Below, piece by piece: positions 19,170-19,902 of a DNA stretch of 64,000 nucleotides (position 1 is its first letter; each line of letters begins with the position of its first letter). The stretch is taken from positions 1-64,000 of the IMG/VR virus record IMGVR_UViG_2724679538_000004; one strand, written 5' to 3'. The translations under genes and the position numbers were made by a program. Source of the DNA: a virus. Its lineage: Duplodnaviria; Heunggongvirae; Uroviricota; Caudoviricetes. Below the pieces are notes generated by a model. That model worked only from the letters and a program-made list of their open reading frames with translations, was not told the origin of the DNA and searched no databases.

Positions 19170-19815
19170 ACATAATATTGAGAACATTGGCGTAACGGGT
19201 TCATATCCCAATTTATGAATAAATGTTGCGTTGCCGCGTGACAACCAGTGTTCTCAACATTGTGATGAATGCACAGGCTGATGTGCCGTAACTACAGTAG
19301 TGCGCGCTTTGCGTGGCTTGCTACAACCCTGTGTCGGAGTTCAGCACCGACCATCACAATTTGGCTCTCTTGCAACAGCATAACGCTGAAATATGTCCAA
19401 CCTGGTGCGGCCTGTTCACCCGCCGTTAGCTCCACGAAACGGAGCGCACAACAGATAAGAGAACTTCCCATATGGGGCTTGGCTTAAATGCATCGAGTTC
19501 TCTTATCGCTGTGTCACAGACAAATTTCCGACAGCCCTGTTTATCATCGGACGCAACCTAAAAGGTCGAGGCAAAGCCAGGTAATAGCGGAGGGAGTGAC
19601 ACAGCACACAACAGGTAAGAGCATTTTCATAGTTCGACTCTCTGAGTTGCTATTCGTGGCGGCACTCGAGATGTGAATGCTCTTTCCGTTGTGGTGAATG
19701 CGGCTAAGCGCACGCGGGGAAATGGTTATATTGATCATCTTATGACATCTGTGGCCCCGTTCACGGTGGATAACCAGCCAAAGGACACCGGGAGGCACCC
19801 GGCACCACAACAATT

Positions 19816-19902
19816 GGAGAGTAGGGAGCATGGTGCTCAAGCGGTCTTGAAATCCGTCCCATTGTGCAAACGATGATGGTTCGATTCCATTACTCTCCGC
19901 CA
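19816..19902 (+). tRNA. putative tRNA-Ser (anticodon TGA) or tRNA-like pseudogene
   Basis: Acceptor GGAGAGT/ACTCTCC, anticodon loop CTTGAAA, T-arm GATGG-TTCGATT-CCATT, CCA end; D-arm and variable arm fold poorly by hand. Confidence 0.4.

Follow-up and report, generated by a model that had tools for sequence, protein, structure and literature searches.

The DNA considered here (the window) is a stretch of 64,000 nucleotides (nt) from a virus of the Caudoviricetes, positions 1 to 64,000 of the IMG/VR record IMGVR_UViG_2724679538_000004. The region under study is 93-97% identical to ~110 kb Escherichia coli phage-plasmids of the SSU5/pHCM2 type (phage CMS-2020a, Cyrano and p009_B). It carries genes for tRNA-Asn, tRNA-Tyr and tRNA-Thr and, after a gap that the original prediction had put at about 650 bp, a fourth gene for tRNA-Ser. 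That description is confirmed by ARAGORN, according to which the third tRNA ends at 19169 and the fourth starts at 19816, so that the gap covers 19170-19815 (646 bp). The gap is a plus-strand array of conserved structured RNAs which is modular and without coding signal, one of its members being homologous to known small RNAs (sRNAs). The order of the modules is tRNA-Thr, H1-S1, X-H2-S2, H3-S3, tRNA-Ser and H4-tail-terminator, where H designates a long hairpin and S a scaffold closed by a helix; coordinates are collected in Table 1. Among the contents suspected for the gap, "other structured RNAs" therefore proved to be the right one, as covarying RNA structures fill it and one of them has a near-threshold match to Rfam STnc100.

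Table 1. Features of the tRNA and structured-RNA locus (positions in the window).
Feature	Position	Strand	Remarks
H0a, long hairpin upstream of the tRNAs	18376-18467	+	25-nt arms 18377-18401/18442-18466, 92% complementary; -42 kcal/mol, z = -6.8
H0b, H-type hairpin	18537-18658	+	CATAACGTTGAGG...CCTCAACGTTGTG; stem type as H1; z = -3.8
mini-S, short closed module	18653-18716	+	GTTGTGAAGACAGG...CCTGTTTTCACAAC; adjoins H0b; z = -2.85
tRNA-Asn	18923-18997	+	ARAGORN; Rfam tRNA 75.5 bits
tRNA-Tyr	19003-19089	+	ARAGORN; Rfam tRNA 41.6 bits
tRNA-Thr	19094-19169	+	ARAGORN; Rfam tRNA 69 bits
H1, long hairpin	19168-19267	+	23-nt arms; -37 kcal/mol, z = -5.2, 0/200 shuffles as stable
S1, S-beta scaffold	19260-19359	+	closing helix TTGTGATG / CATCACAA, then AAT
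S1, P2	19271-19286		GCACA-GGCTGA-TGTGC; variable domain follows
S1, P5	19333-19351		GTCGG-AGTTCAGCA-CCGAC
S1, loop-loop pairing	19277-19281 / 19341-19345		GCUGA with UCAGC
X, two-hairpin module	19372-19446	+	Xa GCGG...CCGC 19407-19423; Xb GCTCC-ACGAAAC-GGAGC 19429-19445
H2, hairpin	19447-19513	+	CACAACAGATAAGAGAACT...AGTTCTCTTATCGCTGTG; z = -4.2; interior of the recurrent CCC-N4-GGGGCTTGGCTTAAATGCA class
S2, closed module	19508-19605	+	10-bp closing helix GCTGTGTCAC / GTGACACAGC; z = -2.7
H3, hairpin	19607-19693	+	CACAACAGGTAAGAGCA...TGCTCTTTCCGTTGTG; z = -4.5; T-arm-like TAGTTCGACTCTC element inside; stem covaries across loci
S3, S-alpha scaffold (STnc100/PasD family)	19688-19811	+	closing helix GTTGTGGTG / CACCACAAC; P2; P4
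S3, P3	19715-19719 / 19755-19759		CGGGG / CCCCG
S3, P5	19788-19802		CCGGG-AGGCA-CCCGG
S3, pseudoknot	19723-19729 / 19770-19776		TGGTTAT with ATAACCA
tRNA-Ser(UGA), class II	19816-19902	+	ARAGORN call tga; short D-loop, 6-bp variable arm, GCAA loop
H4, 19-bp hairpin directly 3' of tRNA-Ser	19905-19982	+	95% complementary; -39 kcal/mol, z = -9.3
3' tail and intrinsic terminator	19983-20083	+	stem 20056-20075 and T tract (terminator scan)

S3, which represents the S-alpha class, aligns end to end with the Rfam model of STnc100 (RF02076) at 43.8 bits (E = 1e-7), the gathering score of that family being 47; the homologue of S3 in phage P1 reaches 33.4 bits. The closing helix, the AAU junction and a P5 hairpin adjacent to the 3' strand of the closing helix are all found in S3 as in STnc100. 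The literature describes STnc100 and PasD as prophage small RNAs that are related to each other (bioRxiv 10.64898/2026.05.13.724894), and PasD1 and PasD2 have been verified by Northern blot, depend on Hfq and have RIL-seq targets (PMC8550237). The 5' end of PasD1 coincides with the start of an S-alpha-like closing helix (GCAUGGUGAAU...CGCCAUGC), after which come a single-stranded seed rich in pyrimidines and then a terminator. STnc100, PasD1-PasD2 and EcOnc13 share with S3 a closing helix (A/G)UGGUG...CACCA(U/C), the AAU junction and the P5 motif CACCGGGAGGCACCCGGCACC, and they too are carried by temperate enterobacterial phages. Unlike them, S3 lies in the tRNA operon of a phage-plasmid and not in a lambdoid late or early leader, and it has neither a promoter nor an intrinsic terminator of its own: tRNA-Ser begins 4 nt downstream, the sole terminator is at 20056, and the terminal hairpin of the STnc100 model lands on the D-arm of tRNA-Ser. 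The pseudoknot of S3 is also not drawn in the Rfam consensus line. Two recently described prophage small RNAs were considered and set aside as different, namely svsR, located at the 3' end of cI, and HnrS, a 66-nt RNA (EcOnc10-12).

A 21-mer from S3 retrieved 72 viral contigs, from which 23 diverse S-alpha representatives (including P1 and ST64B) were aligned. RNAalifold independently recovered five helices from these sequences, with double-sided changes at 10 pairs. In these helices 96.5% of the cells are paired, compared with 32-45% when the partners are slid, and 73 cells are compensatory (both sides changed); the covariation score of 0.297 (0.114 for shuffled alignments) was reached by none of 500 shuffles. 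The strand just after P3 pairs in addition with the loop of P4, forming an H-type pseudoknot, which was judged sequence by sequence because the MAFFT alignment puts the subtypes two columns out of register. The two positions are filled, depending on the sequence, by at least 10 different complementary pairs: the TGGTTAT/ATAACCA of this window, TGGTTAG/CTAACCA, TGGTTAA/TTAACCA, TGGTTTTA/TAAAGCCA, AAGGCTG/CAGCCTT, AGGGCT/AGCCCT, AAGGCCG/CGGCCTT, AAGGTTG/CAACCTT, CAGTTAA/TTAACTG and CTGACAA/TTGTCAG. The idea that GGATAACCAG mimics the type I-E CRISPR repeat was rejected, since these bases form a strand of the pseudoknot and their counterparts in relatives covary freely. The apical loop within P3 is hypervariable and usually pyrimidine-rich (CUCCUU type), resembling an anti-Shine-Dalgarno sequence.

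S1 belongs to a more abundant sister class, S-beta, for which 90 unique copies share a 7-bp closing helix, the AAU junction, P2 (GCRCA-GGYYGA-UGYGC), a variable domain of 12-162 nt, and a P5 (GYCGG-AGAUCAGCA-CCGRC) that runs straight into the 3' strand of the closing helix. All of the helices, the AAU and the GCUGA:UCAGC loop pair are present in S1. Among 29 diverse sequences, 93.5% of the cells are paired (25-56% with slid partners), a value reached by 0 of 500 shuffles. The loop pair changes from GCUGA:UCAGC to GUCGA:UCGAC in all three P2/P5 loop combinations with a variant P2 loop, and this double compensatory change supports a contact between the loops of P2 and P5. Rfam gives no match for S1, even at E <= 10, and a hammerhead-like CUGAUGA box in P2 was discarded as a ribozyme candidate, the remainder of the core being absent and no Rfam family matching. 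The relation between the classes was examined with a covariance model (R1) built from the 29 S-beta sequences, which include S1 and do not include S3. S1, as a member of the training set, scores 77.9 bits on the plus strand and 7.4 on the minus strand. S3 scores 39.2 bits (E = 6e-7) against 7.9 on the minus strand, and the S-alpha copies of P1, phiES15 and ST64B reach 35-36 bits, with less than 8 bits on the opposite strand. This cross-detection indicates that alpha and beta form one superfamily, which includes, with S1 and S3, the expressed, Hfq-dependent prophage sRNAs STnc100, PasD and EcOnc13.

S-beta is widely distributed. The pattern GTGRTGAATGCRCAGGYYGATGYGC has at least 120 matches in IMG/VR, and in a one-genome-per-species collection it is found in 54 stretches, which include many Enterobacterales, Aeromonas, Janthinobacterium, Massilia, Undibacterium and Xenophilus as well as Marinobacterium, a Moraxellaceae genome, a Lysobacterales genome and Martelella. 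One variant of H plus S-beta is present in 1529 of 5426 complete E. coli genomes, where none of 30 matches sampled across the ranking overlaps an annotated feature. No searchable paper contains the S-beta core sequences. Two copies lie beside tRNA-like or tRNA sequences. On the minus strand of a metagenome-assembled genome labelled Geobacteraceae (L309, around the match at 3850-3874), a typical enterobacterial X-H-S-beta cassette is found, so that this is either a mis-binned contig or an unusual host range; its variable domain contains a tRNA-like insert (GTAAGCTCAACTGGTAGAGC...GGTTCAACTCCAG), followed further on by tRNA-like sequence, which implies that the S-beta variable domain can carry a tRNA-like cargo. 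In a prophage of Massilia sp. TS11 (L297, 4484-4796), a tRNA-Gly is followed two bases past its called end by S-beta and then by tRNA-Pro. This tRNA-Gly occupies the position of H, and CACACA/TGTGTG lengthens its acceptor stem, which gives it the construction of an H stem.

The H hairpins have a common stem pattern, CACAAC(A)GGTAAGAGCA...TGCTCTTTCCGTTGTG, with variable interiors. The stems of H1-H3 are 17-23 bp long, and z ranges from -4.2 to -9.3 for H1-H4. H1 holds the inverted repeat of the original prediction, which is real and was misplaced by a few nucleotides: its arms, TGAGAACATTGG (19179-19190) and CCAGTGTTCTCA (19245-19256), are complementary at 11 of 12 positions as DNA, while as RNA all 12 pair (one G-U), and they are the core of longer, 23-nt arms (19168-19190 / 19245-19267). 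The same hairpin is present in P1 and many other loci, and copies ~87% identical to H2 occur in more than 55 of the fetched loci. Directly 5' of the unique S-beta copies, a hairpin of at least 12 bp is found in 73 of 90 cases (21% in shuffled controls), and one of at least 16 bp in 50% (3% in the controls). The 59 distinct pairs of H arms contain 776 Watson-Crick pairs, 161 G-U and 30 A-C oppositions, and this excess of G-U over A-C indicates that the plus-strand RNA is the folded molecule. The interiors fall into recurrent classes, one of which is represented in H1 by the mini-hairpin GGGTTCATATCCC; some contain T-arm-like hairpins (GGGTTCGAATCCC in P1 and the element in H3), and no tRNA is called for H elements with such inserts in other loci.

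The 5' strand of each S closing helix shares the last four bases of the preceding H stem. The CACAAC at the 5' end of each H (19447-19452, 19607-19612) can pair with GTTGTG, with which the S closing helix also begins (see also 19803-19811 and equivalents), so that H and S compete for four bases. This competition may constitute an alternative-folding or processing switch. The position that changes in relatives (GTTGTGGTG/CACCACAAC versus ATTGTGGTG/CACCACAAT) covaries with the S closing helix and not with H. As for X, a 23-mer from it is found in 106 viral contigs, always directly 5' of an H hairpin. According to a comparison of 15 divergent representatives, Xa covaries (GCGG/CCGC, GCAG/CTGC, GCGACGC/GCGTCGC, GCATAAC/GTTATGC and GCTGG/CCAGC) and Xb is near-invariant. 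S2 is rare, being found only in two close relatives (L002 and L081). It has neither the S-alpha nor the S-beta scaffold and is not matched by R1, and was consequently excluded from the S family.

The fourth tRNA gene had been described as having poorly folding D- and variable arms. Its variable arm is in fact a 6-bp stem (CATTGT-GCAA-ACGATG) for which three relatives (L018, L052 and L062) have CATTGC-GCAA-GCGATG, a compensatory U-A to C-G change. The D-arm pairs as well (GAGC/GCUC); what stands of the earlier remark is that its loop is unusually short (5 nt). A cloverleaf, a 7-nt anticodon loop with UGA, a long variable arm and the T-loop UUCGAUU are present, the gene is annotated as tRNA-Ser in the RefSeq record of plasmid p009_B (97% identical), and the Rfam tRNA-Sec model finds the cloverleaf and long extra arm at 41 bits, under the threshold of that family. 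Judged by its sequence, 19816-19902 is thus a functional-looking, genuine class II tRNA-Ser and not a degenerate gene. The original prediction was to be abandoned if a tRNA-Ser and nothing else were called here; ARAGORN does call the tRNA-Ser, and "nothing else" fails on the structured RNAs. In the anticodon stem (19846-19854) this copy has a closing U31-U39 mismatch, which is U-A or U-G in close relatives; it could be relevant to recognition by anticodon nucleases, or neutral. The Asn-Thr part of the cluster (18923-19169) is 79.5% identical to the tRNA cluster (Asn, Thr, Ser) of N4-like phages, which points to a tRNA block common to very different phage types. Relative to P1, tRNA-Tyr is an insertion.

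Further elements lie upstream of the tRNAs. The closest relative has no coding sequence (CDS) annotated in the 760-bp stretch corresponding to 18161-18922, which holds H0a, H0b and mini-S, the latter resembling a short module of P1 (GTTGTGATGAAG...CTTCACAAC). Positions 18196-18294 have ~78% identity to sequence that is left without annotation in Felix O1-like virulent phages (~87 kb) and in Klebsiella siphoviruses; in the siphoviruses the similar stretch adjoins X/H2-like sequence. On the other side, a scan of 18000-20400 returned a single terminator-like site, 20056-20075, after a ~70-nt tail following H4, and the closest annotated relative has no CDS from the last upstream gene to the point of this terminator. 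A 450-aa, AT-rich open reading frame (ORF) with hydrophobic N-terminal segments (20084-21436, minus strand) converges on this shared terminator. As p009_B has a hypothetical protein of another length (420 aa) at that place, it may be a variable accessory or defence slot. Elsewhere in the window, 32665-33083 (minus strand) matches the cspA thermoregulator family of Rfam over its full length (185.7 bits), and the phage-plasmid appears to carry a cold-shock-protein gene with a temperature-sensing 5' untranslated region.

The number and type of cassettes differ between relatives. Nine distinct Thr-to-Ser spacers were found, of 195, 213 (three distinct), 294, 493, 646 (this window), 668 and 705 nt; the shortest contain a single H+S cassette and this window contains three. 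The last slot is occupied by S-alpha here and by S-beta in the 97%-identical p009_B, and P1-like genomes differ from one another by whole cassettes. The same modules are found in lambdoid phages, in the leader after the early-left promoter (ST64B and phiES15) and, in ENT47670, between the late terminator (tR') and the lysis genes. An intrinsic terminator lies within 60 nt of 27 of 141 unique S-beta copies, compared with 15 of 600 random positions. From these comparisons of sequence, the H and S modules appear to be shuffled among phages in the manner of cassettes.

The gap is also ~90% identical to the trnT-tciA spacer of phage P1, which lies inside the C1-controlled ban operon. Many other temperate phages carry such cassettes too, without annotation. 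Upstream of trnA, a dicF-like region is annotated in the same operon (P1 68791-68892; L001 1576-1677), so that the ban operon carries several kinds of noncoding RNA (ncRNA). No DicF-like match was found upstream of the tRNAs of this window.

Since elements are found both upstream (from ~18376) and downstream (to 20056) of the gap, the latter would be the middle third of a noncoding tRNA/ncRNA unit of ~1.7-1.9 kb on the plus strand, running from ~18376 or earlier to 20056-20075, in which four tRNA genes are interleaved with structured-RNA cassettes, each made of an H (sometimes preceded by X) abutting an S. The entire unit would be transcribed into a single precursor and cut by the nucleases of tRNA maturation, with RNase P acting where the tRNAs begin and perhaps also at the closing helices of S, and with RNase III or RNase E cutting at or near the long H stems. 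The compact S scaffolds would then persist as stable small RNAs, whose variable domains and loops would act in trans on host or phage RNAs. We give this reading a probability of about 0.5. S-beta has a tRNA-like topology: its helices of 7 and 5 bp adjoin without a break and can stack, a contact between the P2 and P5 loops resembles the elbow of a tRNA, and the variable domain sits at the place of the anticodon arm. By sequence its loops are neither D- nor T-loops. Tentatively, the H-S cassettes, and S-beta foremost, could be a very widespread and previously undescribed class of phage RNA, S-beta being a tRNA-shaped frame whose function would exceed that of classical Hfq-dependent sRNAs.

Several observations weigh against the proposed precursor and its trans-acting products. 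No sigma-70 consensus promoter is predicted near the array, and the searchable literature contains no expression or processing data for the element or for the P1 region. Within the window, a search for exact complementarity to the variable regions (longest match per region) gave at best 11-14-mers in coding sequence, which are not distinguishable from chance, and self-targeting was rejected on this account. A same-strand tRNA lies within 600 nt of just 38 of 180 unique S-beta copies (21%). An obligatory association with tRNA genes is thereby ruled out, and the link to tRNA processing cannot be obligatory either. The STnc100 match of S3 remains under the gathering score, and S1 and S3 are devoid of the single-stranded seed and terminator module by which PasD binds Hfq, so the way in which classical sRNAs use Hfq may not apply to them. 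Over several proteobacterial classes the S-beta core keeps its sequence and not just its structure, a pattern more in keeping with recognition by some conserved machine of the cell than with a scaffold that only stabilises. Finally, the model assigns no part to S2 and X.

Other explanations of the gap make less of the RNA, or nothing at all. P1 annotates two minus-strand ORFs in the trnT-tciA spacer, plp and upl, and the window has an intact Upl-like ORF of 59 aa (19292-19471, minus strand), as well as a minus-strand ORF of 148 aa (19544-19990), so that the RNA structure could be incidental to proteins. The substitutions point the other way. Between P1 and the window upl is 90.6% identical as DNA and only 72.6% as protein, with 1, 9 and 6 substitutions at codon positions 1, 2 and 3, and neither frame has the excess of third-position changes that a conserved frame would show. 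Plp is truncated to 38 shared residues out of 125 and plp overlaps trnT antisense, the 148-aa ORF overlaps tRNA-Ser, and there is no Pfam family for it nor any match above threshold for Plp or Upl. In p009_B, the closest plasmid, the homologous stretch has no CDS in RefSeq, and the asymmetry of G-U over A-C and the R1 scores favour the plus strand. A protein-coding gap is accordingly very unlikely, and what is annotated as plp and upl in the ban operon is in all probability an array of structured RNAs instead of two genes. The original prediction had also thought of degenerate tRNAs or introns, for which the T-arm-like hairpins of some H interiors, the real tRNA-Gly at the H position in Massilia and the tRNA-like insert in one S-beta variable domain could be cited. 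ARAGORN and the Rfam tRNA models (E <= 10) call nothing in 19170-19815, nor are such H elements called elsewhere, and neither the group I and group II covariance models nor any other Rfam intron family matches 18500-20400 at E <= 10. Unlike decaying pseudogenes, moreover, the gap contains covarying non-tRNA structures under purifying selection, and the idea of tRNA or intron remnants is largely refuted.

The remaining alternatives accept the structures and differ from the proposed trans-acting sRNAs in what they do. The elements could work purely in cis, as punctuation for the processing and stability of the tRNA precursor (entry sites for RNase III or RNase P, plus protective folds), the excised pieces having no function. 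Indeed, the H stems are 17-25 bp of double-stranded RNA, the type of substrate of RNase III, exactly at the module boundaries, cassettes lie between tRNAs here and in P1, and in the Massilia prophage the tRNA-Gly inside the extension CACACA...TGTGTG abuts S-beta. We nevertheless find this unlikely, as most S-beta copies are away from tRNAs and many stand alone with their own terminator, the S-alpha relatives PasD and STnc100 are abundant Hfq-bound sRNAs with target sets (PMC8550237), and the near-invariant loop and junction nucleotides across proteobacterial classes exceed the needs of a cleavage site. A second idea is that S-beta imitates tRNA and that this imitation is its function. It would bind or titrate some conserved factor that recognises tRNA (RNase P, the CCA-adding enzyme, modification enzymes, the ribosome or a defence nuclease of the host that targets tRNA), and would be carried beside phage tRNAs in a translation or anti-defence toolkit. 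The closing helix and the contiguous P5 add up to 12 bp, as do the acceptor and T arms of tRNA, and the loops of P2 and P5 show covarying pairs with each other, comparable to the contact of the D- and T-loops. An exact 25-nt core is found in Enterobacterales, Aeromonas, Janthinobacterium, Massilia, Marinobacterium, a Moraxellaceae genome and others, and the 21% of copies near a same-strand tRNA compare with ~6% that the density of tRNAs in the fetched loci would predict, an enrichment inflated by many related P1-like and SSU5-like copies. The YrlA Y RNAs provide a precedent, as these tRNA mimics are acted upon by RNase P, TruB, DusA and the CCA-adding enzyme (PMC4201824). On the other side, the P5 loop (AGAUCAGCA) has no motif of the U54-A58 type and so does not qualify as a T-loop, P2 has 5 bp and a 6-nt loop, no CCA follows the closing helix, the modules are unscored by ARAGORN and the Rfam tRNA models, and a decoy would leave the hypervariable domain of 12-162 nt unexplained, all of which makes pure mimicry improbable. 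Lastly, the scaffolds might be antiterminators in cis, like the put RNAs of HK022, and would allow RNA polymerase to continue past tRNA genes and terminators in long phage operons. This would agree with the lambdoid modules at the places of nut and put (early-left leader in ST64B and phiES15, late leader after tR' in ENT47670), and with modules often directly followed by an intrinsic terminator and then genes. It is highly improbable, given that put RNAs are two simple stem-loops of ~70 nt, that PasD and STnc100 accumulate as discrete terminated sRNAs (termination does happen after them), and that the scaffolds of this window occupy middle and terminal positions in the unit instead of its leader. 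Identity with the put type was ruled out, the whole HK022 genome having neither the S motif nor a significant R1 match.

Comparable systems are known. Spacer RNAs of E. coli tRNA operons (3'ETS-leuZ and the internal spacer of metZWV) are sponges of small RNAs, and by analogy the array could provide functional RNAs from the transcribed spacers of a tRNA operon, released by tRNA processing. The gap is located as such RNAs derived from external or internal transcribed spacers (3'ETS/ITS type) are, and the layout of a 3' external spacer RNA is matched by H4, the tail and the terminator (19905-20083). The E. coli spacers are however short, little structured and act by simple base pairing, whereas here ~650 bp consist of autonomous, horizontally shuffled and highly structured cassettes. 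GOLLD and ROOL are ornate phage RNAs of obscure function which often adjoin tRNA genes, each forming an Rfam family; they are single RNAs of ~600-800 nt, mostly from Firmicutes and environmental phages. Neither has an Rfam match at this locus, which in contrast has an array of independent ~100-nt cassettes, varying in number, in Proteobacteria. In engineered "tRNA scaffolds", a cargo RNA takes the place of the anticodon arm of a tRNA-shaped frame, and the cell processes and stabilises it. The S-beta frame, with its cargo at the anticodon-arm position, may be seen as analogous, and to our knowledge no natural phage equivalent has been described. YrlA and other bacterial Y RNAs (PMC4201824) are likewise ncRNAs with a long stem and a tRNA-elbow-like domain, found also in phages. 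Their arm order and loop sequences differ, Rfam gives no Y RNA match at E <= 10, and no GNCGAA(N)G Ro-binding motif was seen by eye in the H stems, so that identity with YrlA was rejected. The known kind to which the array belongs is that of the STnc100/PasD prophage sRNAs, which it expands. What is new is a sister class without Rfam match, the H and X modules, the placement in a tRNA operon and two newly supported tertiary contacts.

These results lead to the re-annotation of a textbook region of phage P1 and of the matching spacer of the SSU5/pHCM2-type phage-plasmids common in E. coli. They also tie the little-understood STnc100, PasD and EcOnc13 to a much larger superfamily, with a core found from Enterobacterales to Betaproteobacteria, and provide it with an architecture, which is five helices and a pseudoknot for alpha and a tRNA-like loop-loop elbow for beta. 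If S-beta is indeed a tRNA-shaped frame, it could be a natural "tRNA scaffold" that borrows the tRNA-maturation machinery for programmable RNAs, or else a mimic engaging a conserved tRNA-binding machine, with its cassettes shuffled among P1-like, SSU5-like and lambdoid phages. The organisation of the locus suggests that tRNA operons serve temperate phages as vehicles by which shuffled RNA cassettes are delivered.

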